A DNA stretch of 37,167 nucleotides from Draconibacterium orientale. Lineage in GTDB: Bacteria; Bacteroidota; Bacteroidia; Bacteroidales; JAADGE01. Made by a program: the position numbers and the translations under genes. Shown one piece after another: positions 1,602 to 30,082 of the stretch. The stretch lies in NCBI GenBank assembly GCA_020718265.1, contig DYSM01000001.1, positions 1-37,167 of the forward strand. The letters run 5' to 3'. The stretch's first letter is position 1. Each line of letters opens with the position of its first letter. Under the pieces are notes generated by a model. It was not told the DNA's origin. It saw only the letters and a program-made list of their open reading frames with translations, and made no database searches.

Positions 1602-1636
1602 GTCCTTTGCTCGGCTGCGGTATATGCTGAGTTTTG
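1602..1636 (+). promoter_or_regulatory. copy A of the recurrent bipartite motif GTCCTTT(TT)GC - N - GAGTTTTG (putative late promoter)
   Basis: gtcctttgc starts at 1602 and gagttttg at 1629-1636, exactly 27 nt from the first G as in the other copies. An ATG follows at 1642. Confidence 0.5.
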
Positions 1637-1641
1637 TAATT

Positions 1642-1887
1642 ATGTTACTCTCTGAGGCAATAGAGCTCGCACAAAACGGACAGCCGCACGATTTCACATT
1701 CGTGTCGCACGGAACTGCCAAGAAGAAACGCGAAGGCGGTTACACTGTGAACATGACGAAAGCTGTTGTAATAAGTTCGTTTAAGGAAAAACAGAAAATG
1801 AATCTAAAATCGTTAGACAGCGGGCAAATTCGTTGGTGCTATTTTGTATTACTCACACATATTGATAATGAAGAGATATTTGTATGA
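1642..1887 (+). CDS. hypothetical protein (81 aa)
   Basis: The track ORF 1600..1887 starts at TTG. An in-frame ATG at 1642 sits 6 nt after the -7-like box. The stop overlaps the portal ATG (ATGA at 1884). Confidence 0.45.
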   Translation: MLLSEAIELAQNGQPHDFTFVSHGTAKKKREGGYTVNMTKAVVISSFKEKQKMNLKSLDSGQIRWCYFVLLTHIDNEEIFV

Positions 1888-3263
1888 AAGAAGAAAAGTT
1901 TGAATTACTTGTGCCATTTTCGGCAAGCTATTTGCCCGGCGCACGTGCAGCGGTAACTTTCGCATCCACAGATTATTTCACGGAACCGGATAAGCCTATT
2001 TCTGTCAGTGAGAAATATCGCGGTGCTGTGCCGTGGGGCTCTGACAATGACTTGCCTAGATATATTACGGACACGCTCGGGAAGAATCCTGTCGGCTCCG
2101 GAAGTATGGAATTGCGCATTGATATTGCTTACGGCGCAGGCGTGAAGTTCGGCGTTATGGACGAAAACGGCGAATTTCGCGAGGCTACTCAGCAAGAAAA
2201 ACAAGGCGTATATGCTGCTGTTGAGCAGTTTTTTCAAGATAACGATATGAACACGTTCATGTCGGAATTGATTACGGACATTAATTTTTTCTACAACGGT
2301 TTCGTTGAAATCATTCTCGATATGAATGAAACAGGCAGTCGTCGCGTTGTTTCGATGGCGGCAAAAGAGGCGTATTTTTCGCGTTGGGAAACTGCAAATC
2401 CTGATACCGGCATTGTTGAAAATCATTTCTATTCTGCGCTGTGGCCCAAAAAACCGAAGGATACTGAGGTTACAATTACACCTGTAATTTGGGCGAAAAA
2501 TGCCGCCAAAGAACTTGAAATTCGTATCGGTCGCCGACCGAATGATGTCGGCAAAACTAAGGATGAAAAGGAATTCCGGTATATTCTTCCTGTTCGCTTG
2601 CCTTCGCCCGGACGAACATACTACACGAAGCCATATTGGTATTCTGTAATAGAATCCGGTTGGATGGAATTTGCGAACAAAATTCCGGAATTTAAAAAAC
2701 AATTTATGCTTTACAGCATAAATATTGCGTATCATATTGAAATTAACGAACAATATTTTCCGAAAATATTCGCCAAAGAAGGCATTACAACCAAGAAAGG
2801 GCAGGAAGAGCGCGTGAAAAAAGAACTCGACAATTTGAATGAGTTCTTGAAAGGCGCAGAAAAAGCGGGCAAATCCATGATTACTTATTTCAAATCTACG
2901 CCCGACGGCAAGGTTGAAATTCCTGATATTAAGATTCATGTCATTGATAAGAAAATTGGCGGCGAATATATTGACGATTCGCACGAAGCCTCTGCAATGA
3001 TTGCTTACGCCATGCGTGTGCATCCGTCGCTCATCGGAACTATACCCGGCAAAACTACATCCAATCTTTCAGGTTCTGACAAGCGCGAACTGTTACGTAT
3101 TGCACAGAGTTTGCAGAAACGAGTTCGAGACCAAATCTTGAAACCGCTGTATCTGGTAAAACAGATTAACAAATGGTCGCCTGAGATTGAATTTTCAATC
3201 CCTGATATTTTCCTGACCACGTTGGATACCAACGGCGAAATCGACAAATCCGCACAAGTATGA
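1884..3263 (+). CDS. putative portal protein
   Basis: 459 aa. It is the first large structural ORF downstream of terL if the contig is circular, and its size is typical for portals. It is translationally coupled to the next gene (ATGA at 3260). No diagnostic motif was recognised, so the call rests on position and size. Confidence 0.55.
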   Translation: MKEEKFELLVPFSASYLPGARAAVTFASTDYFTEPDKPISVSEKYRGAVPWGSDNDLPRYITDTLGKNPVGSGSMELRIDIAYGAGVKFGVMDENGEFREATQQEKQGVYAAVEQFFQDNDMNTFMSELITDINFFYNGFVEIILDMNETGSRRVVSMAAKEAYFSRWETANPDTGIVENHFYSALWPKKPKDTEVTITPVIWAKNAAKELEIRIGRRPNDVGKTKDEKEFRYILPVRLPSPGRTYYTKPYWYSVIESGWMEFANKIPEFKKQFMLYSINIAYHIEINEQYFPKIFAKEGITTKKGQEERVKKELDNLNEFLKGAEKAGKSMITYFKSTPDGKVEIPDIKIHVIDKKIGGEYIDDSHEASAMIAYAMRVHPSLIGTIPGKTTSNLSGSDKRELLRIAQSLQKRVRDQILKPLYLVKQINKWSPEIEFSIPDIFLTTLDTNGEIDKSAQV

Positions 3264-4147
3264 GCCGCACAATTTTCTTAACTATTGCCGAAATTAAGGA
3301 GCAAATCAGTGTTGATATTAGCTCCGATATTCGTACGCTGCAACCTTACATCAAACAAGCCGAAACGCGCTATCTGAAAGAAATTATCGGAACAGATTTG
3401 CTTGAATTACTTCGCGCTGCCGTAAACGACGAAGATGCAATCACGCCCGAACTTGAAGCCTTGCTTCCTGTTGTGCGCTACCCTGCCGCACATTTCGCGT
3501 ATATGTTGGCTGTGCCGCAATTATCGCTGAATGTCGGCGAGACCGGCATCGGCGTAACGATGAGCGGAAACTTTGAACCGGCAGCCGAATGGCGATTGAA
3601 AAACTTTTCAATTTCGCTCGAAAATACAGGCTACGACGGCGTTGAGGAATTGCTTGAATTCCTTGAAACCTATGTTGCCGACTACCCGGAGTGGGTTTTG
3701 TCTCCCGCATATTCGTTCAACAAAAAGTTATTTGTGAATAATGCTGCCGAGTTTGAAACGGCTACGATGATTGACATTCCGCGTCTGAAATTCCTGCATT
3801 TGCGTTCGCATCTGTATATGTTTGAGCAAAATACAGTGAAAAAAACAATTTCGGCGGCACTTGCCGACGAAATAAAGGCGCAAATCATTGCGGATACGCT
3901 CTCGCCTGAGAATGAGTTGCTGCTCAACTCCTACATTCGCCCGGCGGAATGTTATTTCGCACTGTGGAAAATGGAAGATAAGGCCGAATTGAAGCTCGAA
4001 TATACCCGACTGGTTGAAGAATTACAGGCATATCTGAACACGAATGCCGCAACCTATCCGCTGTATGAAGCTTCTGACTGCTACTCAACCTTGAGCGTGA
4101 TTGGGTTGAACGACGAAGCCAGCGGATTTTTCATGATGGGACGATGA
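3260..4147 (+). CDS. hypothetical protein (head/connector module)
   Basis: 295-aa ORF. Its start overlaps the portal stop and its stop overlaps the next start, giving an operon-like arrangement. Confidence 0.6.
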   Translation: MSRTIFLTIAEIKEQISVDISSDIRTLQPYIKQAETRYLKEIIGTDLLELLRAAVNDEDAITPELEALLPVVRYPAAHFAYMLAVPQLSLNVGETGIGVTMSGNFEPAAEWRLKNFSISLENTGYDGVEELLEFLETYVADYPEWVLSPAYSFNKKLFVNNAAEFETATMIDIPRLKFLHLRSHLYMFEQNTVKKTISAALADEIKAQIIADTLSPENELLLNSYIRPAECYFALWKMEDKAELKLEYTRLVEELQAYLNTNAATYPLYEASDCYSTLSVIGLNDEASGFFMMGR

Positions 4148-5885: not shown

Positions 5886-6270
5886 AACTTCTATTTGCAG
5901 CAAGTTACAATCCTTTCGTTGAACCTGCATTTATTTTTTTGAATAATGCAGGTAGGGTAAAATTATTTAGAATGATTCTAAATAATAAACGACTTGAAAA
6001 TAATTTTGCCGATTAAAATAAACGGTTTACATTTGCAGCGTTCCAAATACAGATGACTATGTCATACGCTGAATTTTCAAATATTAACAATACGCCATCG
6101 GGTAAAATCTACCAAGTGCTTCGGCATGGAAGTCTGTTTTTGGAACAACCCGATGGTTTTTTATTTTATAAATTTTTCTATATGTTCCAAAAACAGCAAG
6201 TACAACACGTCGCGAAAGCCCATGTTGTAAATCCGCTCATTCGTGCGGTTATCGTTTCCGTAATTTTGGC

Positions 6271-8555: not shown

Positions 8556-8980
8556 TGAAAACATTCACAGCAGAAATTATTGTTCCGTTCAGAATAAAGA
8601 AACGCCCCACTCGTTGGGGCGCGTTCTGGGCGAACCGCTTACTGTTCGATTTCTACGGCGAAGGCGGAAAGGCTTGGCAAGGCGGACTGCTCATGGCTAT
8701 ACAACTCTTACTGATAGTTCCGATGTTGTTACTTGATTTCGGAATTTTGTTAGTTTTTGGTGCATGGAAGTTACTTTTCGGATTCAGCAAAAAGACAACA
8801 GAAGCAGGAATTGACGTAACAACAAGCACATTGAAAACTGCATTTGGATTCATTCTAAAATGGGTTATTGCAATTGGCGCAATTATTTTTCTATACACAA
8901 TAATATCAGACGGATTATGGAAAAAATACTCGGAAAAATTGTCATTCTACTTGGAACTGTTACAATCAGTTTCGTTTTGA
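8555..8980 (+). CDS. multi-pass membrane protein (lysis cassette, second holin/antiholin candidate)
   Basis: The track ORF starts at GTG 8552, with an ATG at 8555. Three hydrophobic segments are present (LLMAIQLLLIVPMLLLDFGILLVFGAW, FGFILKWVIAIGAIIFLYTII). Confidence 0.5.
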   Translation: MKTFTAEIIVPFRIKKRPTRWGAFWANRLLFDFYGEGGKAWQGGLLMAIQLLLIVPMLLLDFGILLVFGAWKLLFGFSKKTTEAGIDVTTSTLKTAFGFILKWVIAIGAIIFLYTIISDGLWKKYSEKLSFYLELLQSVSF

Positions 8981-9576
8981 TTCATTATGTGAATTTCAAA
9001 CTTACCTTGACAGGTTCCGAAAGTTACTTTTCAGAGAAAGTAAGACAGCTTGATATTATCAACGAACTCCGAATGCGTAGCTTATCAATTATCGACATGC
9101 GCGATATCACGAAACAAGGCACACACATGAAAACAACAATTTCACACATCGTCTTACATCACGATAATTATCCTTACGGTCAAGATAATTCGTGGGACAA
9201 TGTGGATGAGTATCACGAAGGCAAGGGCTGGGGCGGAATTGTGTATCACTATTTTGTCAGCAGGTCAGGCAAGGTATATCAAAACCACACCGACAGTGCT
9301 AACACTCCACACGCAGGAAGCCGAAAGTATAATGCCGTGTCCATTAGCGTATGTATGCAAGGCAATTTTGAAACAGACACGCTCCAAGGTGAACAGAAAC
9401 GCAGCGTAATCAAGCTGCTCTACCTCTTACGCCGACGATACCCCGATGCAATCTTAGTCGGACACCGCGAGGTAAGACCTGAGCCGACGGCTTGCCCGGG
9501 GAGGAACATTGACTTAATTAAGCTGAAAGAAGCAAGTTTTCAACCTCACATTAAATTACTGAATTATGAGCATTGA
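8917..9576 (+). CDS. N-acetylmuramoyl-L-alanine amidase endolysin (Amidase_2/PGRP, T7-lysozyme-like), possibly with an N-terminal signal anchor
   Basis: 'ISHIVLHHD', 'GWGGIVYHYFV', 'NTPHAG' and 'VGHREV..PTACPGRN' match the Zn ligands and core of Amidase_2. The start is uncertain. ATG 8917 adds a hydrophobic helix (ILGKIVILLGTVTISFVLI), whereas ATG 9073 would avoid the overlap with the previous gene. Confidence 0.85.
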   Translation: MEKILGKIVILLGTVTISFVLIHYVNFKLTLTGSESYFSEKVRQLDIINELRMRSLSIIDMRDITKQGTHMKTTISHIVLHHDNYPYGQDNSWDNVDEYHEGKGWGGIVYHYFVSRSGKVYQNHTDSANTPHAGSRKYNAVSISVCMQGNFETDTLQGEQKRSVIKLLYLLRRRYPDAILVGHREVRPEPTACPGRNIDLIKLKEASFQPHIKLLNYEH

Positions 9577-10627: not shown

Positions 10628-10769
10628 TTGGTTCATGGCATTGTGTCGCCAGACCAATTATAAAATAATCGCTGCACAGTCACGCTGTTTGCCTCATGCA
10701 TAGAAAAACTGTTTTTTTTTTTTTGTTTTTTTTTTGTGCACACGTTTTGAGGAAATTTGTGCACGTTTT

Positions 10770-10804
10770 GTCCTTTTTGCACATGATTTTTAAGCGGAAA
10801 TTTG
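10770..10804 (+). promoter_or_regulatory. copy B of the bipartite motif GTCCTTTTTGCAC - N - GAAATTTG (putative late promoter for the tape measure gene)
   Basis: gtcctttttgcac at 10770 and gaaatttg at 10797-10804 (27-nt offset), with the ATG at 10821. A second ggaaatttgtg copy lies at 10751-10761. The motif is preceded by T13-G-T10 (10712-10735). Confidence 0.55.
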
Positions 10805-10820: not shown

Positions 10821-13800
10821 ATGGCAGATATACAAGGCAGAGTAGATTTGAAGGTGAACGGCGACGATGCCGCCGCCGAACTAAAACGCTTACAGAAGAA
10901 GACTTCGGAACTCCGTCAGGAGATTTTGAAAGTGCAAAAAGAACAGTTACTGAAAAAGAGTTCGATTGACGAAGCTTACAAGGCTCTGAAACTTGCACAA
11001 ACACGCGCATCGGATTTGCGCATCGAAATTGTGAAACTCTCACAAGCCGTTGTCATTGACGAAAAAGCATTGAAGCTCGCCAACGCCGAACTTGCCAAGG
11101 CTGATGCCGAAATAAAATCTATCAATAAGGAGTTACGTACCTTAGAGAAAAACCCGGCATTGAACGCACTCAATGCGGAACTCAAAGCAACGAACAACCA
11201 ACTCCGTGCCATTGATAACGCAACTTTCGAATACAGTAAAGTCCTTAAGAATCTATCAGGCGCAACCATTAAAGACTTGAACCGCGCACATGCACAACTC
11301 AGTAAGGAAATTCAAACCATAAACCGTAACACGGACGAATATCGCCAAAAGTCCAAACAACTTGCGCAAATATCTACAACTATCGGGCAAGTGCGCAACG
11401 AGATGCGCGGCGTTGCAAAAGAAACGCTGACATTCAAGGATAGACTCGGCAAGATGGCTGATAATTTCAACCGTTTCGGCGCAATGTCAATCGGCATTAT
11501 CGGTTCACTTACCGGATTAGTGGTCTCGGCACGCAAAGCGGTGGATGCGTTCAACGAGTTTGAATCTTCGCAAGATAATTTGCAGGCATTGACCGGACTT
11601 TCAGAAGAAAAGGTGAAAGGCTTAGGCGATGCCGCGATTGAAATGAGCACATCTGTGCAGGAAGGCGGCGTGCGCATAACGAAATCCGCCAAAGATATTG
11701 TGGATGCGTTCACGTCCGCAGGCTCGAAACGACCGGAACTGCTCGCAAACGCAGAGGCATTGAAAACCGTTACGAACGATGCACTTATCCTTGCCGAAGC
11801 CGCTAAGATGGAACTCGACCCGGCAATCGGCGCAGTTACCGCCGCCATGAATCAGTTCGGACTTGGCGCAGATGAAAGTCGCCGTATTATCAATGTGTTT
11901 GCGGCAGGCTCGAAGGCAGGCAGTGCGGAGGTGGACAGCCTTGGAGAATCGTTCAAGAACGTGGGAACGGTGGCATCGGAAAGCAACATGACTCTCGAAG
12001 AAACGGTTGCGGCATTGGAGGTTTTGGGTGACAAACAAATCTATTCGGAAGAAGCCGGAACGAAATTGCGTGGTGCATTATTGAAATTAAAACAAACCGG
12101 CGTGGGTTACGCATCAGGCACGTTCAACATGCGCGATGCTTTGTTAGAAGCGAACGCACAACTTGAAAAACAAGGCACGGAAGCGCAGAAAGATGCGCTG
12201 AAAATGAAATTGTTCGGTGCTGAAAATATTACGGTAGGTTCTATTTTGCTTGGCAACATCCTAAAATACGACGAACTGACAAAAGCCGTTACCGGCACGA
12301 ACACGGCAATTGAGCAAGCAGCAATTAACACAGATAATAACGCCGCCAAACTCGAACAGGCAAAAAACCGCGCCCAAGAAAATGCGATTGTGCTGGGCGA
12401 ACAGCTCGCCCCTGCCCTCACATTCAGTACGAATGCGTTTTCGTATTTGTTGAAAGTGTTGGTTACGATTATAAAAAATTGGGACACGTTTGCGAAGTAT
12501 TTGAAAATTGCTGTTGCCGGAATTGTAGCTTATACTGTCGTTACGAAAGGTGCGACAATTGCAACTTTTTTGCAAGAAAAAGCAACATTAGTCTTGAAAA
12601 AAGCCAACGACCTTCTTAGTATTTCAATGAAAAAAACGCCTTGGGGTTTGATAATAGCCGGAGTTGCTGCTGCAATTACGGCTTTTATATTATTCCGTGA
12701 AAAGGCTAAAGAAGCTGAAAAACCTCTGCTTAATCTTGCAAAAGCAGGTGATATATATTCTGAAAAAATGGCTGAGGTTGTCGGCGAAAGTGATGCTCTT
12801 TTTGAGATGCTGAAAACAACAGAAAAAGGCACGCAATCTTACGACAATGTATTGAAGGCTGTTAACGAAAAATATAAAACATATTTGCCTAATCTTCTTA
12901 CACAGCAGACTTCATTAGAAGATATTGAAAAAGCTCAAAAAGCAGTAAATGAGGCATTATTACAAAATATTGCGATTGAAAGTAAAAAAGAGGAATTTAT
13001 AAATCTAAACAAGGAATACTTAAGGTCACAACGTGAAATTTTTAAAATTTTCAATGAAACGATTAAACCATCTGTTATTGATAGACTTGATACGTTTAAT
13101 TTCGCTTGGTTTCAAGCTGCGGCAAATGCCGGCTTAACAGCCGATCAGATAAGCGCATCAGTTCAGTCTGCGACAGGATATAGTATTATTGATGATAATC
13201 TTCGGAATCTTGTTTCGGATACAAAACGTGCCGCACTTGAGTTTGAAAATGGGAAAAAAAGTATAGGAGAATTTTATTCTACGCTTATAACAGGAAGCGA
13301 AGAAGCGGCAAATTCAGGGAATGGGACAGGAGGCGGAACCGCAAACGCCCAAGCCAAAGCCGATGATTCTCGTATGCTTTTCGAGCTCATTCAACAATTA
13401 AACATCAATGCAATTGAGGACGAGCGCAAACGCGCTGCGGCTGAATTGGAAATCTGGTTCACGAAAGAGCAGGAGAAAATATTGATGGCGAAAGTATCGG
13501 AAGAGCAAAAGAATTATGCACTCTCGCAATTGGATGCCGCGTATACCGCCAAACGTATCGAGAATGAAAAGGCATATCAAGACGAATTACTGAAACGCTA
13601 CCAAGATATTGAGGCATTCGTAACCGAAGCGCAACGCGGCATCGTAACCGAACAGGAACGATTGAACGAAATTGAACTTGCGGCAATTGACGGAAAATAT
13701 CAAAAGCAAATTGATGCCGCAACGAAGTTCGCATCCGAAGATGTCGCCAGACGTGAGGAATATCTGCGCATTATTTCCGACCTTGAAACCGTGCGCGATG

Positions 13801-14829: not shown

Positions 14830-14864
14830 GTCCTTTTTGCACTCTGATTTTTTTTAGAAATTTG
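14830..14864 (+). promoter_or_regulatory. copy C of the bipartite motif
   Basis: gtcctttttgcac at 14830 starts 2 nt after the tape-measure stop. gaaatttg lies at 14857-14864 (27-nt offset) and the ATG at 14883. Confidence 0.55.
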
Positions 14865-14882: not shown

Positions 14883-15323
14883 ATGTTGATGTATCTTCTC
14901 TTTTCAATTCTGTTGCAAGTTCCTGTGGATGTTGCTTCACCCGAAATGAAACTTCTTGATTATGGTTCCTTCGGAATTATGCTTGCATTTTCGATTTTCA
15001 TTATTCGTTACCAAGCGAAAAAAGATCAACAACTACAAGAAAAGCGCGATATTGATTATAAGAATGCAATGGACAGGGCATATAAGGAACGCGACGAAGC
15101 TATCAAGGAAATGAATGTTATTTCTACGCGATTCATTGACCACATGGAGGATAATACGAAGCAGAACTTATCTGTAATTGTTGAAAATACTAAGGTAATT
15201 TCCAAGTTTTCAGATAGTTTCGATATGTTCTCGAAATCGAACGTCTTACTTGCATCTAGCATCGAAAAACTAACAGTGATAACGGAATTCTACTCGAAAA
15301 AATTCAACGATATACATAAGTAA
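14883..15323 (+). CDS. hypothetical membrane/coiled-coil protein
   Basis: 146 aa with a hydrophobic N-terminus and then a charged helical region. The stop overlaps the next ATG. Confidence 0.55.
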   Translation: MLMYLLFSILLQVPVDVASPEMKLLDYGSFGIMLAFSIFIIRYQAKKDQQLQEKRDIDYKNAMDRAYKERDEAIKEMNVISTRFIDHMEDNTKQNLSVIVENTKVISKFSDSFDMFSKSNVLLASSIEKLTVITEFYSKKFNDIHK

Positions 15324-17146
15324 TGCTCGAAATTCGCTTCAACTCACAGCCCATTGAACTGCCGGACGATTTTCAAATTATTATCGTTGAGCACGGGAAT
15401 GTATTCACGTTCGACAAATTAGAAGGTGGCTATTCTTTACCTGTTTCGGCTCCGATGTCGGTGCGAAATCAGCGTATTTTTGGGTTTGCATTTCGACCTG
15501 AAAAACACGAAAACGAAGTTATTGAGGGCGATGCAGAAGTAATTTTTCACGGTATTCCGATTGCACGCGGCATTATGCGTGCGGAAGAAATTAGTCAGAA
15601 GTCGATTGAGTTCACTATTTTCGTGAATAACGGCGGTTTCTATCACCAAATAAAAGACAAGCTGCTCACAGACTTAGACTATGGCGACGACTGCGAATTT
15701 ATTTTGCCAACGTTCGCGGAAAACGGAACGCGGTATCCGCAGAGATATGTTTTGGCTACGATTCAGAACGAAGATTTTTTTAAGGACACTATATATGAAA
15801 ATTATAAGACAGTTGAAGGCGGTGTTTGGAAAGATGCGTTTGAGAAACAGAATACTGTGAATTCGATTGAATCACAAGCTTATGAATTCTTTTTTAAATA
15901 TAACTATCCTGTTGCAGTTACGCCATTCCCTTTTGTCGATGATGTCTTATATAAGGTGTTATCGAATTTCATTACCTTATATGAATCTAAGGTTTCTGAT
16001 AATCAATTCCTAACGTGGTTTCCAAAACAACTTCTATTCACCGTTAATACAATTGTATATGCAAGGCATGAGATAGATTTCGGAACCTATAATGCGAAGA
16101 ATCATGTTCCGCGTACACCCGTTACGGAGTTTTTGTTGTCAATACAAAATTTTTGGAATTTATTTCTCAATGTGCGGCATGGTCATGCTATACTAATTTC
16201 GAGATACGATATGATTATGACAGAAAGTTATATCGATTATTCGTCGAAACATGTCAAGACTACAACGAAGAAAATTACAGGCAAAGCAGACGGATGGGAA
16301 ATTTCTGTGCAACGTGATAGTGCTGACTCATTTGCATCTAATTATCCTGATTTTTCGCAGTCCCAACATAGTCATATTGAATTACCATCGTTAGAATATT
16401 ATCCTGTATATGGGAATTATACAGTGTACGATACCATAGGTTTCGCAAGATTCACTTATCGGATGGATCATACAAAAACACTTGTTTTTTTTGAAAATCC
16501 GCCCGGTATATATTCCATTCTTAGTCAAGGCGAAGAATGGCAAGTCCTTCCGGAAGGTTCAGGTAATTTCCAAGAATTTCGTAATGTTGCAATTTCTAAC
16601 GGAATGTTTTCCGGCAATCTTGACGTGAAAATTCCACTATTTTCTTGCTCAATATCGCACTGGTTATACGGTCAGAACCAATCGAATCTAAGAGCATTAC
16701 CGATAGTTAAACAGAAAGGAAACTTTTTTCAAGGCGCTCTTAACCGGAATGGCACGGAATATCCATATAACGATTTCTCATTACGGTATATGTTTCACTT
16801 TTCGAATGATATGACAGCATTGCCTTTCAGACATATTCCATACGCAGCTTCCGGGTATTTCTTTGGAGTTCCTCCGTCAGGCGATGCTCCGGAAGATGAA
16901 AAAGATACGATAAGCTACTCGGCACAATGGTCTTATTACGAACGCTGGAAAAAGTTTCTAACTTGGTATCTTGATGTTGATGCTGAATATACAATCTACC
17001 TGTATATGAATGCGGCAGATATTTTTAATTTCGATTTCACAAAAAAATATAAAATAGGGGAAAATACCTATTTCATTACGGACTTGGAATATAACTTGAG
17101 TAATAATGGAGTTTCAGTAGTTAAGGCAACAGCAATTCGTTTCTGA
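15323..17146 (+). CDS. putative tail (distal tail/baseplate) protein
   Basis: 607-aa ORF just downstream of the tape measure. The call is by position only. Confidence 0.5.
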   Translation: MLEIRFNSQPIELPDDFQIIIVEHGNVFTFDKLEGGYSLPVSAPMSVRNQRIFGFAFRPEKHENEVIEGDAEVIFHGIPIARGIMRAEEISQKSIEFTIFVNNGGFYHQIKDKLLTDLDYGDDCEFILPTFAENGTRYPQRYVLATIQNEDFFKDTIYENYKTVEGGVWKDAFEKQNTVNSIESQAYEFFFKYNYPVAVTPFPFVDDVLYKVLSNFITLYESKVSDNQFLTWFPKQLLFTVNTIVYARHEIDFGTYNAKNHVPRTPVTEFLLSIQNFWNLFLNVRHGHAILISRYDMIMTESYIDYSSKHVKTTTKKITGKADGWEISVQRDSADSFASNYPDFSQSQHSHIELPSLEYYPVYGNYTVYDTIGFARFTYRMDHTKTLVFFENPPGIYSILSQGEEWQVLPEGSGNFQEFRNVAISNGMFSGNLDVKIPLFSCSISHWLYGQNQSNLRALPIVKQKGNFFQGALNRNGTEYPYNDFSLRYMFHFSNDMTALPFRHIPYAASGYFFGVPPSGDAPEDEKDTISYSAQWSYYERWKKFLTWYLDVDAEYTIYLYMNAADIFNFDFTKKYKIGENTYFITDLEYNLSNNGVSVVKATAIRF

Positions 17147-17149
17147 TTT

Positions 17150-17183
17150 GTCCTTTTTTAGAAGTCTTACTTCCTTAATTTTG
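17150..17183 (+). promoter_or_regulatory. copy D of the bipartite motif
   Basis: gtcctttttta at 17150 starts 4 nt after the stop at 17146. A perfect TAnnTTTG (taattttg) lies at 17176-17183 and the ATG at 17191. Confidence 0.55.
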
Positions 17184-20066: not shown

Positions 20067-20555
20067 TTGAATATGAAACTTATCAATACCACAACAGGTA
20101 CAGTTATTGAAATCACCGACGTAAATAACACTCTCAATCGCGTTGTTTTCGTTACGCAAGAATTCAACAGCGTGAAATCGCCTTGTAAGGCGAATTCTCA
20201 TACTTATAATAATTTCAGCATCAATGCAGCTTATAACATTGAATCAGCCTTGATACGACTATGTTACGAAGCATTGAAATTGGAAGTATTTCCGACGTTC
20301 AAAGTATCGGAAAATGAGAACTGGCTGTTCCCGTTGCGTCCGATCCGCGTGTATATTCCGGACGGAATTGTGAAATCGGCAACAAACTCCGGCAATGCGC
20401 TCGGTCAATTGCTTATGGCAATGCAGTCGGATATTCCGGCTGAGTTCCGAAAAGCGACAGAAACAGGTGTAGTAACTTATCTTGAATTACTATTGCCGGA
20501 ACATCGCGCAATTATGGAGGCATATCCAGAAATTATTTTAGAAGAAAAAGCTTAG
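20067..20555 (+). CDS. hypothetical protein
   Basis: 162-aa ORF following the fibre gene. It converges on the integrase stub with a 4-nt overlap. Confidence 0.5.
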   Translation: MNMKLINTTTGTVIEITDVNNTLNRVVFVTQEFNSVKSPCKANSHTYNNFSINAAYNIESALIRLCYEALKLEVFPTFKVSENENWLFPLRPIRVYIPDGIVKSATNSGNALGQLLMAMQSDIPAEFRKATETGVVTYLELLLPEHRAIMEAYPEIILEEKA

Positions 20556-20815
20556 AACTTACCGGCTTTTCTCATGATTTGCGAGTTCGCAGTCTTTTTA
20601 GCGTGCAGGGCATAGATACTTGTTATTTCAATAGAGCTATGCCCTGCTTGCTTTGCCACTTCATCATGGCTTATGCCGTCACGAAGCATCTGGATTATAC
20701 CTGTATCGCGCAGGCTATACATGTGATATTCAGGTTTCAGCTTCAAATCTTTTCGGAGCTGTAACCATCTGCGACCTGCGTATTTTGTCTGTTTTTCATT
20801 CATACCTGGTTTCAT
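20552..20815 (-). pseudogene. tyrosine recombinase (phage integrase) C-terminal fragment only
   Basis: The 87-aa ORF contains 'YSLRDTGIIQMLRDG...AKQAGHSSIEITSIY'. This is the box II region, with an H-x-x-R-like element, the GHS histidine and the catalytic Tyr. The roughly 200-300 N-terminal residues of a normal integrase are absent in all three upstream frames. Confidence 0.7.
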
Positions 20816-20917
20816 TTTGTCCGAAAACGCACATTGATTTTCAGCATATTATAAATGCAACTTTTGTAATATTTGCATCATTTTGTGCCGATTTCATGCC
20901 GATATTGCGGCTATAAT

Positions 20918-21271
20918 CTACTGTTTTTCAGTAGGCTTAATGATATTGTCAGTCAATATCTTCTTAATTTCGATTACTTCTTTCAATACTTTCCGAATAT
21001 CAGTTTCTTGCTGTATAGACTTCTTATACTCTGCGATTTCTTCGCTAACAATGCTTTTTTGTTCTGTTGTTTCATATTCATTCGGGTATTCTTGAAATAA
21101 TTCTTCAAGGCTCATTGGTAGTAACTTAGAGAGTATTTCTATCTTTTCGCTCGGCATCCTTCTTTCGTTTATATAATTCTGCTATGTGCTGGCTGAAATC
21201 TCAAGTACCTCACTTATTTGTTTTGACGTATAGCGTTTGAATTTTACAACCTTCTCAATATTAGCGGTATT
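20918..21271 (-). pseudogene. XRE-family HTH repressor-like gene interrupted by an in-frame TAG and lacking an ATG
   Basis: Hand translation of the minus strand gives NTANIEKVVKFKRYTSKQISEVLEISAST*QNYINERRMPSEKIEILSKLLPMSLEELFQEY... This is a contiguous HTH_3-like domain with TAG at 21182-21184. Only the distal 79 aa (20918..21157) form an ATG-initiated ORF. Confidence 0.55.
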
Positions 21272-21275
21272 CTAT

Positions 21276-21899: not shown

Positions 21900-22072
21900 G
21901 CATCAAGGAACTTATCAATCAGATTATCAGTGAAATTCCAATTTATAGGTACCTGGAAACATCCTATGAGTTAGCTCGCATTGAGTTGCAGGCTGACTTG
22001 AAAAAGTGGGAGATTACCTATAATCTATACCTTGAAAAACAAGGTATTAATCCAAAAGAATATGAAGAATAA
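21896..22072 (+). CDS. unlisted 58-aa hypothetical protein
   Basis: Hand translation gives MSIKELINQIISEIPIYRYLETSYELARIELQADLKKWEITYNLYLEKQGINPKEYEE*. It fills an otherwise unassigned gap and overlaps the next ATG (22062). Confidence 0.35.
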   Translation: MSIKELINQIISEIPIYRYLETSYELARIELQADLKKWEITYNLYLEKQGINPKEYEE

Positions 22073-22574
22073 CATCCATAATATTATGTTATTCAAAGGA
22101 GTTACGCTTGAAGAAGCTGCAAATGCTCTCAAAGTTACACGCAAATTTCTATTGCGTATTATACAGGGAGAGCTTATTCCTGACTTGACTCTTGCAATCA
22201 ATATCAGCGAAGTTCTTGCTGAATCGGTCAATTCTATTTGGTCTAAAAATGAACAAGCCTCTTTACTTGTCATATTGAGCCGAGTTGCCAACATTGCAAA
22301 TGTGCCTGATTTTTCAATGAAATCGAAACTTCGTAAACGCTATCTTGTTTCTTCAAGATACGCTTTTTGTTATATAGCAAATCGCGATACCAAAGCTTCG
22401 CTTTCTGAAATTGGAAATCTTATAGGAATAGACCATTCGACTGTGCTATACGGCTTGAAACATAGCTTTTTGCCAGAAGTTTCTGAAATTATTACGACTT
22501 ACTATGCCTTATTCTCACAACCAAACACGCAAAAAAATGAAACCTCTCAAAATAAAGTCTCAAAACACGCATAA
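22062..22574 (+). CDS. DNA-binding protein with an N-terminal HTH plus a DnaA C-terminal (domain IV)-like HTH, putative replication initiator/origin binder
   Basis: 'VTLEEAANALKVTRKFLLRIIQGE' is an XRE-like HTH. 'RYAFCYIANRDTKASLSEIGNLIGIDHSTVLYGLKH' matches the DnaA domain IV signature (..IG..fg.DHsTVlha). The track start at 22032 is TTG, so ATG 22062 is preferred. Confidence 0.6.
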   Translation: MKNNIHNIMLFKGVTLEEAANALKVTRKFLLRIIQGELIPDLTLAINISEVLAESVNSIWSKNEQASLLVILSRVANIANVPDFSMKSKLRKRYLVSSRYAFCYIANRDTKASLSEIGNLIGIDHSTVLYGLKHSFLPEVSEIITTYYALFSQPNTQKNETSQNKVSKHA

Positions 22575-22860
22575 CTATTTCGTATTTGTGAAAGCCGATT
22601 CCGAGATTGATGCAGAATGGGCAAATATATTTGAGCCAAAAGAAATTGAAGCTCAAATCGACGAAAAAAAGGCTGTTATCAGAATTGAAGATTATCACAA
22701 AATCCATTTCAGCATGTTGCAATTGGTAGAATTCATTATCAAACTCTGTTTCGGAGTTGATATTTCCGAATTCAAAAAGTTACTTGTTAAGAAATACGGC
22801 TCTGAAATTCAGACACATGATATTTATTTTGGCTTATACAAATTAATTGAAATCGAATGA
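22537..22860 (+). CDS. hypothetical early protein
   Basis: The track ORF starts at 22504. The in-frame ATG at 22537 (MKPLKIKS...) reduces the overlap with the upstream gene. The stop overlaps the primase ATG. Confidence 0.45.
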   Translation: MKPLKIKSQNTHNYFVFVKADSEIDAEWANIFEPKEIEAQIDEKKAVIRIEDYHKIHFSMLQLVEFIIKLCFGVDISEFKKLLVKKYGSEIQTHDIYFGLYKLIEIE

Positions 22861-25800
22861 TACAGGTATCCACCATAAACCACTTGAAATCAATCGTCAA
22901 GATTGAAGATGTCGTCGGCGATTTCATTAATTTGCGGCGAAAAGGCACAGCACATCTCGGACTTTGTCCGTTTCACAACGAAAAAACCCCGTCATTCTCG
23001 GTATCTCCGGCAAAAGGCATCTACAAATGTTTCAGTTGCGGCGAAAGCGGCAATGCGTTCAGTTTCGTAATGAAACACGAAGCAATGAATTATCCGGAAG
23101 CAGTGAAATGGATTGCGAAAAAATATAACGTTCCCGTTGCAGAATCAGAATCCTCCGACGATGCCGCTCGCCGAACGCACAAGGAAAGCCTTGCAATTGT
23201 TACTGAATTTGCACAGAAAGTCTTTCTACATTCGTTCGATAAATCCGCAGCACACCAATATATGAGCATTGAGCGCGGTTTCAATGCTGAAATTTTGCGC
23301 GATTTCAATATCGGCTATGCGAAAGATGATTGGCAATTCCTGAGCGTTGCCGCACTTAAACGCGCATACAAAGCTGAATTATTGACGGAAAGCGGACTTT
23401 CCGGAACCAAGAAAACAGACGGCTCACTATATGACCGTTTCCGAAATCGCGTTATGTTTCCGTATTTCGATTTATCCGGAAAAGTTATCGGTTTTACAAG
23501 CCGTATTCTTACCGCCGACAAAAGCGAAGCGAAATACATAAACAGCTCAAATACAGAGCTTTTCGACAAAAGCAAAATACTTTTCGGCTTATTTCAGGCA
23601 AAAAAAGCGATTGTTGCCTACGATGAGTGCTTCTTAGTTGAAGGCAATACCGACGTGATGCGTTTCCATCAGCTCGGCATTGCGAACACCGTTGCCACAT
23701 CCGGAACCGCTCTGAGCACTATGCAAGTGAAACTGATTCAACGCTTCACATACCACGTGATTCTGCTGTTCGATGCCGATAATGCCGGCAAAAATGCGGC
23801 AATGAAAAGCATTGACAAGTTTCTTTCCGAAGATTTCGTGGTTAATGTTTGCATCCTGCCCGAAGGCGAAGACCCGGACAGCTTCGGTAAGTCGCGCACA
23901 AAGGATGAAGTGTTGAATTATATTCTTGAAAACAAAGTTGATTTCTTTGAATTTCAGGCGAAAACGCTGTTGAACGGCAGCGTTTCCGCAAAAGATATTG
24001 TGAAAGTTGCCGAAACCATTGCAACCTCAATTTCATTCATTGACAATGAAGCCGAACGTATTATTTTGAGAAAAAAACTTTCTCAAAAATTCGGCATCGA
24101 AGAAAAGCTCCTTGACAAAAAAACTGCAAAACTTTCCGAAGAAAAAGAATGCGTTATAGGCTTTTTTGCCTGGGAAGAAGCGAAGGAAGCTATCAAGGAA
24201 AAGAATGTTGCAAATCTGGTTTTTTCTAATGATTTCGTTATTGAAAAGCATTTCAATAACGAACTTAACACTGTCGGATTCACAGAAAATACAGCTTATT
24301 CATATTTCAATGAGCTGCATAAGCTTACGAAAAATATTAGCGTTTCAGAATCGCTTGGGCAATTTGATTTGATTGATACAAACGGAGAAACGAAGCTTTT
24401 GAAACTTTTCAAGCAACTTATTTCAGTTGGGTTTAACCTTGAGATTACATATTTCAATGAGATCGACGATAAAGAAGATACTACTTCATTCATTGACTTC
24501 TATTTTGAACTGCAAATAGGTTCAATCAAAGGTAGTAATGATAAGTCTAAGAAATCAGCAATTGAGAAATCCGCAGAAATAATATCATTCTTATCTGAGA
24601 CTGAGCGGATGTTAAAAATTAATCATGTTGTTTCAAGATTCAAAAGTAATGGATATGTCATCAATCAAGGCGATTTCAAAAAGATCGTTTCAGATTATCT
24701 CAAAGAGAACCAACGTTCCGATAATAAGGAAGTTACCATATATGCGAATAATCCGCACGGATTGACGAAAGAACAGCTCGAATCGCTTGACAAATACGGC
24801 TTGTTTGAGAAAGATAATCAGTTGTTTTTCGAGGAAAAAAGCGGCGGTTCTGTTCCTTATTCTAACTATATTATTCGCCCGCTCTTCCATATAGAAAGCA
24901 TCAACGAAACGCGCAAACTATTTGAAATCATAAATTTCAAGAACGAAAAACAGATTATCGAAGTTGATATTGAAAGCATGGTCAAGATTGACAAATGGCA
25001 AATATTCTGCGAAAGTAAAGGCAATTTCCTTTTTTGGGGAGACAAAACGAAATTCACTCGATTGAAACAACGCCTGTATGCCGATACGAAATTTTGCAAG
25101 AATATCGAAAACTTAGGCTGGCAAAAGCAAGGTTTTTGGGCATGGGCGAACGGAATTGTGTATGAACGTCAGTTTGTGCCTGTGGACAGTTACGGAACTG
25201 TAACCGTCCTAAATACGAATTATTACATCCCTGCATTTTCGGAGTTGTACAAACATGATAGAACAGTATTCAAGGCTGAGCGCAAATTCGTTCGCAAACC
25301 GCAAGACATTTCGTTTTTTCAATGGTCTGAAAAGTTCATTTCTGTCTATGGTGAAAATAGCAAACTATCTACCTGCGCACTGCTTACGTCTGTGTTTTCG
25401 GATTATATTTTTTCGATTACTGGGAACTTGCCTTTGGTAAATTTTTTCGGTGTGAAAGGCACCGGAAAAACAGAACATGCCAAGAGTCTGCTTAACTTTT
25501 TCGGAGATGAGCAGAACCTGCTCAACATTCACAAAGGCACGGAATATGCCGCCGCAGTGCACATGGAGAATTTCAAAAACGCATTTGCATTGATTGACGA
25601 GTATAAGAATTCGTTAGACATCAATAAGTTGGAATATCTGAAATCTATCTATAACCGCGACGGACGTGTGCGCGGTTCAATCAAGGCAGGAATTAAGACC
25701 GAAACGACACAAGTTAATTCCATGGCATTACTGTGCGGTCAGGAAATGCCGACGGCGGATGTCGCCTTGTTTTCGCGTCTTGTTTTCCTCCCTTACTATA

Positions 25801-26594
25801 ATCCGGAATATTCGCAAACGCAAAAAAACAAGTTCAATGAACTGAAAGCGATTGAGAAAAAAGGATTAACACACTTAGTTGAAGAGCTGCTCGGATTCCG
25901 TTCGCTTATTGAAAAAGAATACGAACAAACGTTCTACGATGTTGAGAAGGATTTGTCGGAGCAAGTATCTTCGTCGGTGGACGGGCGATTGATTAAGAAT
26001 TATGCGATTCTTATAGCGACATTCAAGATATTGGAATCGCGCGTGAGTGTCGCGTTCAAATACGAAGATGTGTTTCAACTCTCACTGAATCGCATTCGTG
26101 AGCAATATACGATTATGAACAGCTCCAACGAAGTCAGTGCATTCTGGGAAAGCCTTGTATCTCTTGCCGAACGCGGCATAATTCGACACGGCGATAATTA
26201 CCGAATCATTGACGAAATCTTCATCACCTTGCTTGTGAAGAATGGTGCATCAACGGAAGAAAAGAGATTTGATTTCTCAGGCTACAAAAACGGAAGTAAG
26301 CAAATATTGTATCTGAAAATGAGCACAATCTATAATTATTATGCCGAACTGTGCGCAAAAACGCGACAAGAAATTATGCCGAAACGCTCGCTTGAATATT
26401 ACATCGAACACAGCAAGACCTTCTTAGGTCGCTCGAAAAGCACACGCTTCGACAACGTAACCACAGGTTGGGCATTTGACTACGATATGCTCGGCATTGA
26501 CCTCAGCAGCCGTAACGATACACTGCAACCATATCACGAAACTCCGCAACCACTTCCTAACTATGAACCAAAAGATGATAATTCACCATTCTGA
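22857..26594 (+). CDS. DNA primase / P-loop helicase fusion protein (DnaG-type zinc finger + TOPRIM + C-terminal NTPase)
   Basis: CHC2 zinc finger '[30 protein letters not shown]'. TOPRIM 'LVEGNTDVM...TSGTALS...[13 protein letters not shown]'. Walker A '[12 protein letters not shown]' and Walker B 'FALIDEY' lie in the C-terminal half. 1245 aa. Confidence 0.9.
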   Translation: [1245 protein letters not shown]

Positions 26595-28461: not shown

Positions 28462-28462
28462 T

Positions 28463-28520: not shown

Positions 28521-28550
28521 AAGCCTCGCCAACTCGGCGGGGCTTTTTTT
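28521..28550 (+). terminator. rho-independent terminator
   Basis: aagcctcgcc - aactc - ggcggggctt 10-bp stem with one G-U pair. The terminal tt runs into a T tract through 28550 (nine consecutive T, 28542-28550). Confidence 0.8.
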
Positions 28551-28611
28551 GTGTATTTTGTTTTTGTAATTTTTGATATTTTTATTTTCGCGTTCAAATT
28601 ATAAAATTCGC

Positions 28612-28860
28612 CGGCTACACCGGCTACAGCTCCGACAAAATGTAAGTTGTTAATATTTAATATATTATATTAATTAGAATACTAATAACTGAAGCTATTC
28701 TGAAGCCGCTGTAGTTTTAGTAATTAAATACAAACATGTCTGAAATAGTTTTGTAGTTTTTTTAAGTTTCAAAACTACAGGTTTTTTACATGTATTTCAA
28801 ATGTCTAAGCGTTTTTAATCCTTATTTTCAGATAGTTGTATTTTTGTAGTTCTTGTAGCT
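28612..28860. repeat. TGTAG-core repeat field in ORF-free DNA (iteron/operator candidates)
   Basis: Forward TGTAG at 28710, 28752, 28845 and 28854. Reverse CTACA at 28615, 28624 and 28775. Tandem cggctaca at 28612 and 28621. A 9-bp palindrome tgtagtttt (28752-28760) / aaaactaca (28771-28779) is followed by ggtttttt. Confidence 0.6.
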
Positions 28861-29029
28861 GGCGTAGGTGCACTTTTAAACTATTTTATAGAAACTAAAA
28901 TAAATGTTTTTGTTGGTGTTTTAAGTCTAATAATTACTACACAATAAATCTATATTTTTGGGGATCGTTACATACAACTAAACTTGTTAATAACTCACAA
29001 TAACTTTGCGTTTTGAGATGCTTATTTAT

Positions 29030-29059
29030 GCGTAAATTTGATTTGAATTTCAAATACGC
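29030..29059 (+). promoter_or_regulatory. Bacteroidota-type -7 box (TAAATTTG) embedded in an imperfect palindrome
   Basis: taaatttg at 29033-29040 matches TAnnTTTG. TTTG elements lie upstream at 29005 and 29012. The arms gcgtaaatttga / tcaaatacgc overlap the box. The ATG is at 29065. Confidence 0.5.
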
Positions 29060-29064
29060 AAAAC

Positions 29065-29523
29065 ATGATAATTCAAGCCACCATTCCTGTTCGCCCACAC
29101 TTGAAGAAGTATATCGTCAAGAAGTTCAAGGCGCAACACATCATCAAGATCTCACACCACAGTATTTTCGGTAAGTTAGTTGTGAAAAGCTTTTCGGAGC
29201 ACTTTGCGCGTGCGCGTGAAACTTCCGCTTTTCGCTCATCCATTTTCATTGAGTTCGACCATGAATTTGAACTCACACTCTCTGCCGGTAATATATACGA
29301 CTTCAATTCGTTGGTCGAAGATATCTATCGGCAGGAGCTAATTCAATATGTGATGCATGAAAAATTATGGAATCCGCACTTCGAGCGAAAGCGTTCAATT
29401 GAGACGTTCAATTCGTATTTTGGCATCACCGAAGATGACATTGCACTTGAAACCATCATAAAATTCATGCAAAGAAGTGCGGAGGACAGGCATTACTTTG
29501 ATTTTCAGAACTATAAAAAATAA
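29065..29523 (+). CDS. hypothetical protein (first gene of the head operon)
   Basis: 152-aa ATG ORF following the ORF-free region. Confidence 0.55.
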   Translation: MIIQATIPVRPHLKKYIVKKFKAQHIIKISHHSIFGKLVVKSFSEHFARARETSAFRSSIFIEFDHEFELTLSAGNIYDFNSLVEDIYRQELIQYVMHEKLWNPHFERKRSIETFNSYFGITEDDIALETIIKFMQRSAEDRHYFDFQNYKK

Positions 29524-29569
29524 AATACGTTTTGTCCTCTGCTATTATTCATTATCTATACATTACAAA

Positions 29570-30040
29570 ATGAGTATCTCCCAAAAAAAAAGAAACAGTT
29601 TTCAGCCAGCAATTAGAATTTACTATGCCGAACAAAAAAGAACAGACCCGGACATCGAACAACTGACCGATAACGGAAACGGAAACTTCTCAGCGGTATT
29701 TGCGCCTGCAAAAGATTGGAAGCAGATTTTTGCAACTATCGGTTCAATCTCAGTTTCTACAAAAGCAAGCCAAAGCGACGAAGGCAAAATTTATGAGCAC
29801 GAAATTACATTTTCTGCTCCGGGCGATGACATTGAAACGCTCTTAGAATTAGAATCGCTTCTTAATATACCTCTTATAATAAGGTGTGATTTTGCAGAAG
29901 TCGTTCCGAAATTATTCGGAGACCTGATGAATTTCTGCTTTCTTGAATTTGATAAAACTAACGAAGGTTATATCTCCGGAACTGATTTAATTTTGAAGTT
30001 CGCATCAGAGCACGATGCACTCACCCTTATAACCGATTAG
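29570..30040 (+). CDS. hypothetical protein
   Basis: The track ORF starts at 29477, inside the preceding gene. The in-frame ATG at 29570 (MSISQKKRNS...) follows the stop at 29523 and a degenerate gtcctctgc box at 29534. Confidence 0.5.
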   Translation: MSISQKKRNSFQPAIRIYYAEQKRTDPDIEQLTDNGNGNFSAVFAPAKDWKQIFATIGSISVSTKASQSDEGKIYEHEITFSAPGDDIETLLELESLLNIPLIIRCDFAEVVPKLFGDLMNFCFLEFDKTNEGYISGTDLILKFASEHDALTLITD

Positions 30041-30047
30041 AAAAAAC

Positions 30048-30082
30048 GTCCTTTTTTCATACTGTATGAATTCTGAATTTTG
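30048..30082 (+). promoter_or_regulatory. copy E of the bipartite motif
   Basis: gtccttttttcat at 30048, 8 nt after the stop at 30040. gaattttg lies at 30075-30082 (27-nt offset) and the ATG at 30117. Confidence 0.5.

Follow-up and report, generated by a model that had tools for sequence, protein, structure and literature searches.

The stretch of DNA analysed here (the window, 37,167 nucleotides, positions 1 to 37,167 of contig DYSM01000001.1 in assembly GCA_020718265.1, Draconibacterium orientale) carries the virion genes of an uncultured Bacteroidota phage, and five blocks of these genes are preceded by the same two-part element, in which a GTCCTTT box lies upstream, at a near-fixed distance, of a box resembling the -7 element of host promoters. 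The features considered are as follows, with start positions predicted from the published distance between the -7 box and the transcription start.

1602..1636 (+), predicted late promoter A: GTCCTTT box 1602-1608 (beginning GTCCTTTGCT; here GTCCTTTG, so that it also holds a host-type -33 TTTG), -7-like box GAGTTTTG at 1629-1636, predicted start about 1641, ATG 1642 (near-leaderless), ahead of an 82-aa gene plus the portal (1884-3263), adaptor (3260-4147) and following genes, portal and adaptor being named by homology to gp06 and gp07 of Polaribacter phage Leef_1; a hairpin plus T-run lies just upstream.
6005..6035 (+), a canonical host-type promoter, TTTG-N19-TACATTTG, 17 nt before gene 6053; it heads the block that contains the lysis cassette and has no GTCC box.
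10770..10804 (+), predicted late promoter B: GTCCTTT 10770-10776, GAAATTTG 10797-10804, predicted start about 10809, ATG 10821 of the 1335-aa tape measure gene.
14830..14864 (+), predicted late promoter C: GTCCTTT 14830-14836, GAAATTTG 14857-14864, predicted start about 14869, ATG 14883 (146-aa and 607-aa tail genes).
17150..17183 (+), predicted late promoter D: GTCCTTT 17150-17156, TAATTTTG 17176-17183 (the only one of the five copies with a fully canonical -7 box), span 34 nt instead of 35, predicted start about 17188, ATG 17191 (517-aa and 436-aa tail genes).
20552-21274, integrase and XRE remnants of a decayed lysogeny module.
29065..29523 (+), gp29065, 152 aa, first gene after an ORF-free region, behind a host-type -7 box TAAATTTG (29033-29040); candidate reader of the GTCC box.
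29534..29569 (+), GTCCTCTGCT, a GTCC-like sequence not counted as a member.
30048..30082 (+), predicted late promoter E: GTCCTTT 30048-30054, GAATTTTG 30075-30082, predicted start about 30087, ATG 30117 (S49-type head maturation protease, then the capsid module).

An earlier note, made from the sequence alone, had listed these five copies as a phage-specific late promoter or RNA element, and its observation is confirmed, with all five copies found at the positions it gave. The offset from the first G to the distal box is 27 nt in four copies and 26 nt in copy D, and copies B and C are identical over GTCCTTTTTGCAC and GAAATTTGT. The pattern GTCCTTTN{20,21}ANNTTTG gives 5 matches in the window, all on the + strand, which is the gene strand, and all intergenic, whereas shuffled sequences give a mean of 0.01 and 0 of 100 shuffles reach 5. 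The heptamer alone is not enriched (7 against 4.45), and what matters is that every + strand heptamer carries the distal box. In the whole 3.4-Mb MAG a stricter bipartite pattern occurs 6 times, 4 of them in this contig. Some details of the note require correction. It had placed all copies 2-12 nt after the upstream stop codon, but only C, D and E lie close to it, at 1-7 nt, with A and B lying 268 and 142 nt after the last ORF; the degenerate sixth copy that it proposed at 29534 has no -7-like box at the right distance (+27); and the ATG follows the distal box by 5 nt in A and 7 nt in D, rather than by 6-8 nt.

To assess whether the element is shared, we searched related phage and prophage DNA with a pattern of fixed 35-nt span. 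We found 61 sense and 0 antisense copies in 1.23 Mb of IMG/VR relatives, and 51 sense and 2 antisense copies in prophages of named genomes, all in Bacteroidota and none in 18 loci from other phyla. Pooled over 2.4 Mb, there are 110 sense and 2 antisense copies, while a control with the pattern written backwards gives 1 and 5. These counts come from a regular expression that fixes A at -11 and T, T and G at -7, -6 and -5, so that conservation of those bases is partly by construction, and related phages are not independent samples. The span is exactly 35 nt in 16 of the 17 copies listed from the six phages compared first, and it is found in phages of 30 to 62% GC. A scan with a weight matrix added nothing beyond the regular expression and is circular. 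Among cultured phages, Polaribacter phage Leef_1 has the element, and Flavobacterium psychrophilum phage 6H has a GTCTTAA variant.

The copies sit at homologous junctions. A GTCC box lies upstream of the head protease in most Bacteroidota relatives, at the place of copy E, and before the small gene that precedes the portal in the window, in the relatives G401 and G402 and in Leef_1, at the place of copy A; Leef_1 also has the element before its neck and tape measure genes. The tail protein at 15323-17146 has no homologues except in a near-identical contig (L007, 98% identity in this protein, which neighbours copy C), so the tail junctions could not be compared widely. In L007 both boxes of copy C are unchanged while substitutions fall in the spacer and the leader, and the homologue of copy D has the 35-nt span and unchanged boxes. 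A search with the protease in 400 genomes of the order mostly hit host SppA and gave little.

The spacing is promoter-like. The distance from the G of the -7 box to the ATG clusters at 3-7 nt, with the commonest value, 4 nt, placing the AUG at +1, and at 15-25 nt, which fits the published 4-5 nt between the -7 box and the transcription start (PMC6847099). The suggestion in the note that A and D give leaderless or near-leaderless mRNAs also fits this published distance. In the host MAG, the -33 TTTG peaks at offset -23 from the -7 box, and the TTT of GTCCTTT occupies that same place, so that the box would lie at -39..-33 and the note's inference that it replaces or extends the -33 element is geometrically correct. 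TTT is at the host position in all copies, but the G that follows it in the host element is present only in copy A within the window and in 6% of copies in relatives. The box itself is not used by host genes: GTCCTTT at offset -27 occurs in 0 of 1041 TAnnTTTG promoters of the host MAG, and in 400 Bacteroidota genomes the pattern is no more common than its control. The -7 boxes that accompany GTCCTTT also depart from the host consensus. Only copy D fits in the window, with A, B, C and E having G at -12 and A also G at -10, and among relatives 1 of 100 unique copies fits TAHHTTTG, the others almost always missing it by one base. A sigma-70-type promoter scan is irrelevant for Bacteroidota.

We interpret the five elements as the late (virion-gene) promoters of a temperate-type siphophage related to Leef_1 (Helgolandviridae-like) that infects a Bacteroidota host, and we give this reading, including its dependence on an activator, a probability of about 0.6. 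In this view, each element has a -7-like box (nAnnTTTG) read by the host primary-sigma RNA polymerase and an invariant GTCCTTT box that overlies and extends the host -33 position, its place at -39..-33 being predicted from the published distance between the -7 box and the transcription start. Both halves are one near-invariant base short of the host consensus (G, C or A instead of T at -12, or A instead of T at -8, or G at -10/-9; almost never G at -32), so that the promoters would be weak for host polymerase alone, and we infer that they are switched on by a phage-encoded protein that binds GTCC(TTT) and recruits or remodels the sigma-A holoenzyme, as T4 MotA/AsiA does at middle promoters. 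The fully canonical -7 box of copy D does not agree with this, and a conserved host factor reading the box is not excluded. Terminators or short gaps in front of the boxes would split the late region into separately fired operons, two of which (A and D) would give near-leaderless mRNAs. What the analysis itself shows is the motif, its statistics, its conservation and its absence from hosts, whereas promoter activity, the need for an activator and the identity of that activator are inferred from sequence alone. The note's interpretation of the element as a phage-specific promoter is supported, by strand bias, fixed geometry, positional homology in distant relatives and start-codon spacing, and its alternative of an RNA element is rejected.

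The note had also proposed the product of 29065..29523 as the regulator, and this speculative candidate gains circumstantial support. Its family is present in 49 related loci, mostly about 1 kb upstream of the protease, and in 7 of 10 records chosen by motif alone, including all 5 that are at least 90% complete; where mapped, it lies zero or one gene upstream of a GTCC promoter, even when far from the protease. The proteins are basic (median pI about 9.2), and gp29065 would be made from a host-type promoter at the head of the late region. Its AlphaFold model has pLDDT 91 with no fold match in the PDB, and its structural twin is an uncharacterised Leef_1 protein (TM 0.83), identified by sequence as gp39. 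Searches of Pfam and PHROGs gave no function, a PDB sequence search was negative, and the predicted fold gives no hint of DNA binding. On the other hand, the GTCC core is invariant across very divergent phages while the gp29065 family averages 22% identity and, apart from the start Met, has a single invariant residue, R137, which is not what a conserved DNA-reading surface would suggest and argues somewhat against the candidate. Genes like gp29065 also occur in prophages with no recognisable GTCC box before the protease, for example in Mariniphaga. Searches of cultured phages with gp29065 and Leef_1 gp39 (tblastn) were too insensitive. No alternative early regulator emerged, as none of the early proteins of the window recurs in the other complete phages with the motif, and the LuxR-like gp22 of Leef_1 and the DnaA_C/HTH protein of the window (22062-22574) are unrelated and have no relatives in the set.

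It is possible, though doubtful on present evidence, that the gp29065 / Leef_1 gp39 / 6H gp40 family, of basic proteins of about 150-190 aa, is a new kind of late-gene activator, which would read the GTC(C) core at -39..-36 and redirect the unusual Bacteroidota primary sigma to promoters built to be unreadable by host polymerase alone. This would imply a phylum-wide and previously undescribed counterpart of sigma appropriation.

The best surviving alternative, which we consider unlikely, is that these are ordinary host-dependent promoters in which GTCCTTT is a lineage-specific, perhaps strong, form of the -33 region read by region 4 of the host sigma-A or by another conserved host factor, without any phage protein. 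The coincidence of the TTT with the host TTTG, the invariance of the core across phages of many Bacteroidota orders, which suits a conserved host reader, the TTTG kept in copy A, the canonical -7 box kept in copy D, and the lack of any known activator family among the phage proteins searched all agree with it. However, hosts were not found to use the box, and the avoidance of the host -7 consensus by 99 of 100 copies and of the -33 G by 94% looks like selection against recognition by host polymerase alone. The phage also uses clean host-type promoters at 6005-6035 and 29033, so two promoter classes coexist. Less likely still, the box may be an operator on which a phage repressor or another negative regulator sits to keep the late promoters silent, for example in lysogeny. 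The overlap with the -33 region, a classical operator position, and the temperate lineage (integrase and XRE remnants in the window, an integrase in Leef_1) would allow this, but the box is a short asymmetric heptamer without dyad symmetry, the defective -7 and -33 halves call for activation and not only repression, and the boxes are intact although the lysogeny module of the window is decayed. A role at the RNA level or as part of the preceding terminator, suggested by strand specificity and by a hairpin plus T-run often lying 2-4 nt before the element (G401, G402, Leef_1 and copy A), is rejected, because RNAalifold on 30 instances gives 0 pairs and 0 kcal, single-sequence folds do not differ from shuffles (z from +0.3 to -2.1), three window copies have no convincing terminator in front, the exact 20-nt distance to a -7-type box is polymerase geometry, and the box would lie upstream of the predicted start and so outside the downstream mRNA.

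The arrangement resembles T4 middle promoters, in which the host-type downstream element is kept, the -35 element is replaced by a phage-specific asymmetric box at a fixed distance, the promoters are weak for host polymerase alone, and a temporal class of phage genes is driven. It differs in the host system (Bacteroidota sigma-ABfr, with -33/-7 elements), in a box at -39..-33 rather than one centred at -30, in driving late and structural genes, and in having only a candidate activator, as no MotA or AsiA homologue was detected with Pfam and PHROGs in any window protein searched. Bacteroidota housekeeping promoters (-33 TTTG / -7 TAnnTTTG; reportedly Bayley 2000; Baez 2019, PMC6847099) have a similar -7 box, the same distance between elements, with the T's of the box aligning with the host TTTG at a 19-nt spacer, and short or absent leaders, but in the phage element GTCC is added upstream, the G of TTTG is lost and the -7 box nearly always deviates. 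The activator-dependent late promoters of Mu (protein C), P2/P4 (Ogr/Delta) and phi29 (p4), which have a poor -35, similarly place one shared upstream site before each of several late operons, with the activator gene at the start of, or just before, the late region, but those sites are mostly dyads further upstream bound by known protein families, rather than a 7-nt asymmetric box overlapping the -33 position. Putative GTCC-type boxes of different Bacteroidota phages (GTCCTTCA+19 nt, a TGTCC-T run, GGTCCTT) have the same core, fixed distance to a -7 box and position before late operons, often after terminators, with other box tails. Literature searches found no description of the motif, and the Leef_1 paper does not mention promoters. 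What is new here are the host-side controls, the systematic defect of the -7 and -33 halves, the cultured examples and the co-occurrence with gp29065.

Gene timing is almost unknown in Bacteroidota phages, which include abundant gut and marine viruses, and a conserved and easily recognised late-promoter signature lets late operons be marked in uncultured genomes, supports a Bacteroidota host call and points to an unidentified switch protein. As the two cultured systems carry the element (Leef_1) or a variant (6H), the question is directly testable, and if the switch is confirmed, the box plus its reader would give an orthogonal, inducible promoter for Bacteroidota genetics.

A megablast of 25 kb of the window against cultured phages found nothing. 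The window and Leef_1 share core proteins in the same order (gp39-like, protease, gp48-like, portal, adaptor) [phmmer E-values: portal 2e-52, adaptor 3e-18, gp39 1e-8, protease 8e-42, gp48 1e-51].

The longest contig (40,595 nt) of the 3.4-Mb, 626-contig MAG, of which the window covers the first 37,167 nt, has a GC content (0.405) close to that of the MAG (0.398). Apart from two decayed lysogeny genes, all genes read on the + strand. Few of the encoded proteins match known families, and besides a 1335-aa tape measure candidate and a DnaA_C/HTH protein these are an S49-type head maturation protease, an amidase and a DnaG-type primase. Polaribacter phage Leef_1 (Helgolandviridae) has the same gene order as the window, and homology to this phage names three further genes. 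Named genes with their coordinates, all on the + strand, are:

1884-3263, portal (by homology to Leef_1)
3260-4147, adaptor (by homology to Leef_1)
8860-9576, amidase
22857-26594, DnaG-type primase
30117-31337, S49-type head maturation protease
35383-37029, gp48-like protein, probably the large terminase (by homology to Leef_1)

The five copies of the two-part element (A to E, in their order along the window) lie where the earlier note placed them, with an offset of 27 nt between the first G and the distal box (26 nt in copy D), so that the observation is confirmed. The pattern GTCCTTTN{20,21}ANNTTTG matches five times, always on the + strand, against 0.01 expected, and none of 100 shuffled sequences contains more than one match. 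The heptamer alone is not enriched (7 occurrences against 4.45), but all five heptamers on the + strand carry the distal box. In the MAG as a whole, four of the six matches to a stricter bipartite pattern fall in this contig, which makes up 1.2% of the assembly. Two details of the earlier note did not hold: it had placed every copy directly after the stop codon of the upstream gene, whereas only copies C, D and E follow a stop codon closely, and the degenerate sixth copy that it had listed at 29534 lacks the distal box. Just upstream of promoter B, at 10728-10765, lies a partial duplicate of its -7 region (GAGGAAATTTGTGCAC against GCGGAAATTTGTGTA), in which GTGCAC occurs twice, with TGCAC a third time in promoter B, and there is no GTCC box for this upstream copy.

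The tail genes are orphans, but the protease has many relatives. To assess whether the element occurs in other phages, we retrieved 80 IMG/VR loci with an alignment of the protease and completed three of the records. Sense copies greatly outnumber antisense copies in each of the collections, and the same pattern read backwards shows no such excess.

Table. Sense and antisense counts of GTCCTTT-N19-21-AnnWTTG in related phage and prophage DNA.
Data set; sense; antisense
IMG/VR relatives, 1.23 Mb; 61; 0
80 prophage loci from named genomes; 51; 2
Pooled, strict 35-nt pattern, 2.43 Mb; 110; 2
Backwards-pattern control, same 2.43 Mb; 1; 5

In the named genomes every copy is in Bacteroidota (Bacteroidales, Lentimicrobiaceae, Prolixibacteraceae, Chitinophagaceae, Cnuella and Sphingobacteriaceae), and none is found in 18 loci from other phyla. 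The span of the element is exactly 35 nt in phages ranging from 30% to 62% GC, and the related phage record G401, with 62% GC, has five copies, each after a GC-rich terminator. The positions are also homologous: a GTCC box lies 50-90 nt before the protease ATG in most Bacteroidota relatives, and another lies before the small gene that precedes the portal in the window (copy A), in G401, in a second related phage record, G402, and in Leef_1. In many relatives (the loci L053, L056, L050, L094, L061, L071 and G402, the last being the same as L077) the protease promoter is followed, just upstream of the protease ATG, by an inverted repeat, TTGTAyyy...rrrTACAATG, which pairs the 3' part of the -7 box with the bases just before the start codon, and which could be an operator or a hairpin that occludes the start codon in read-through transcripts. 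In L007, a near-identical contig with 98% identity in the neighbouring tail protein, substitutions fall in the spacer and the leader and not in the boxes, and its copy D has the regular 35-nt span.

Lineage variants of the box exist, and all keep the same geometry: GTCCTTG in Draconibacterium prophages, GTCCTAC in Cytophagales, GTCCTAA in a high-GC genome, and CATGTCTTAAA in the cultured Flavobacterium phage 6H (NC_021867). In 6H, four late operon starts on the minus strand, upstream of the genes ending at 13578, 20547, 29391 and 31061, carry CATGTCTTAAA 20 nt before a -7-like box, and this is a GTCT variant of the same design. The cultured phage Leef_1 has six TGTCCTTTT(T) boxes, several of which follow terminators, and they precede gp02, gp04, gp05 (then the portal), gp13 (neck, then tape measure), the protease and gp46. 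Within the window, the gaps at 32391-32443 and 33389-33455 both hold a good terminator hairpin whose 3' arm ends in CTCC and is followed by a T-run (CTCCTTTTTT, CTCCTATTTTT), but no -7-like box lies 20 nt further on. Relatives have an intact GTCC promoter after the homologue of gene 32444-33388, so these may be decayed copies.

The distance from the last G of the distal box to the next ATG clusters tightly at 3-7 nt and at 15-25 nt, and the commonest short value is 4 nt. In Flavobacterium johnsoniae the -7 element is T-12 A-11 .. T-8 T-7 T-6 G-5, with 4-5 nt to the start (PMC6847099), and a 4-nt gap therefore puts the AUG at +1. Copies A and D would then give leaders of about 1 and 3 nt, and copies B, C and E would give leaders of 12, 14 and 30 nt. 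This geometry, the strand bias and the intergenic positions are what promoters show, although promoter activity itself is inferred here from sequence alone. A structured RNA element finds no support, since RNAalifold on 30 instances finds no pair at all and single folds of the window copies and their upstream flanks are not significant.

To compare the element with the promoters of the host, we collected from the host MAG 1041 TAnnTTTG boxes lying 13-68 nt before an ORF of at least 100 aa. In this set TTTG peaks at offset -23, which is a 19-nt spacer, while GTCCTTT at offset -27 occurs 0 times and GTCC occurs there twice, which is background. In 400 Bacteroidota genomes the bipartite pattern is no more frequent than the same pattern read backwards, and only the window's own MAG has four copies on one strand. 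The T's of GTCCTTT (-35..-33) coincide with the T's of the host -33 TTTG, and the box therefore overlies and extends the -33 element, as the earlier note had inferred. By sequence the window also holds clean host-type promoters, so that two promoter classes coexist; examples, on the + strand, are:

6005-6035, TTTG-N19-TACATTTG, before the block with the lysis genes
29033, TAAATTTG, before gene 29065

Both halves of the element show a systematic defect with respect to the host consensus. Among 100 unique GTCCTTT promoters the commonest -7 boxes are TAATATTG, TAACATTG, TATCATTG, TATGTTTG, GAAATTTG and GAATTTTG, and only one of the 100 fits the host rule TAHHTTTG, the rest having a non-T at -12, an A at -8, or a G at -10/-9. 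The base at the host -33 G position is G in only 6%, and in the window four of the five copies have G at -12. Both halves thus stop one near-invariant base short of the host consensus, which is the usual mark of activator-dependent promoters, and this is our main reason to prefer a phage-encoded reader over recognition by the host alone.

In searching for a protein that might read the box, we found that none of the window's early proteins recurs in the other complete phages carrying the motif, and that the HTH proteins of Leef_1 and of the window are unrelated to each other. The only conserved gene that is not obviously structural is the one that the earlier note had proposed as a candidate regulator:

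29065-29523, + strand, gp29065, candidate reader of the GTCC box

Iterated HMM searches find its family in 49 of the related loci, usually about 1 kb before the protease. Among ten records picked by the motif alone, seven encode it, including all five that are at least 90% complete. Where it is far from the protease (G401 and the Cnuella prophage), or in records found independently of the protease, it still lies zero or one gene upstream of a GTCC promoter, and in two Cytophagales prophages it is transcribed divergently from the protease operon, with the GTCC promoter in between. The family is basic, with a median pI of about 9.2, and 6H gp40 is one of its members. The protein is modelled confidently (pLDDT 91) as a beta-alpha-beta-alpha-beta unit plus a helical C-terminal half. 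The model has no PDB fold match (best E 1.3) and matches only an uncharacterised Leef_1 protein in BFVD (TM 0.83), while by sequence the Leef_1 member of the family is gp39. In several relatives the gene's own promoter has the same geometry, but with a deviant box (GACC, GGCC or ATCC, then TTT) and a canonical -7 box (TACATTTG), and that would suit a gene that must fire before its product exists.

Other observations speak against this candidate. The family averages 22% identity, and apart from the start Met only one residue (R137) is invariant, while the DNA core is invariant. Family members also occur in prophages with no recognisable GTCC box. One prophage without a GTCC box, L324 (contig C30 of genome G447), instead has, downstream of its gp29065-like gene, two copies of GACTTTGTCACA, which contains the near-palindrome TGAC-TTT-GTCA and may be a different regulatory site. 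Searches of Pfam, PHROGs and the PDB gave no annotation for the family, co-occurrence among related phages is weak evidence, and only 2 of 200 other Bacteroidota genomes sampled carry the family. We regard the assignment of the gp29065 family as the reader as tentative and less likely than not.

The design works like the middle promoters of T4, where a host downstream element is paired with a phage box in place of the -35, but it is not a member of that system, since no MotA or AsiA relatives were detected, and it is not a standard sigma-ABfr promoter either. The papers that we could search, including the description of Leef_1, do not mention the motif, and the promoter class appears to be undescribed and phylum-wide. 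What the present analysis contributes is the host-side controls, the systematic defect of both halves, two cultured test systems and a sharpened candidate for the reader. The motif, its strand bias, its conserved positions and its absence from the host promoters examined are direct observations, while promoter activity, dependence on a phage-encoded factor and the identity of that factor are inferred. That the elements form a promoter class is very likely, and the interpretation of the earlier note, which had read them as phage-specific late promoters with an RNA element as the alternative, is supported in its promoter reading. Dependence on a phage-encoded factor is less certain, and we place its probability at about 0.6.

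Repeats and a paralogy were also observed. The 156-aa protein just upstream of the protease (29570-30040) is paralogous to part of the 314-aa protein that follows the capsid gene (32444-33388), and an iterated HMM merges the two families across about 100 loci. The first ~95 nt of the window (1-95) recur, with one mismatch, near the end of the same contig, at 39841-39935 and beyond the window, and each copy lies in front of a different gene (131-490 and 40008-40565). This may be a repeated regulatory region or att-like repeat, or an assembly overlap of a circular genome. From 37030 to 37167 in the window, and continuing to contig position 37650, a direct repeat of about 120 nt (GATACTTTGGGCGAATACCGT...) is interrupted by Ns, and the word TTTTTTCGCATACTCAAAAA occurs three times, once as the loop of a long perfect hairpin of about 25 bp at 37571-37650.
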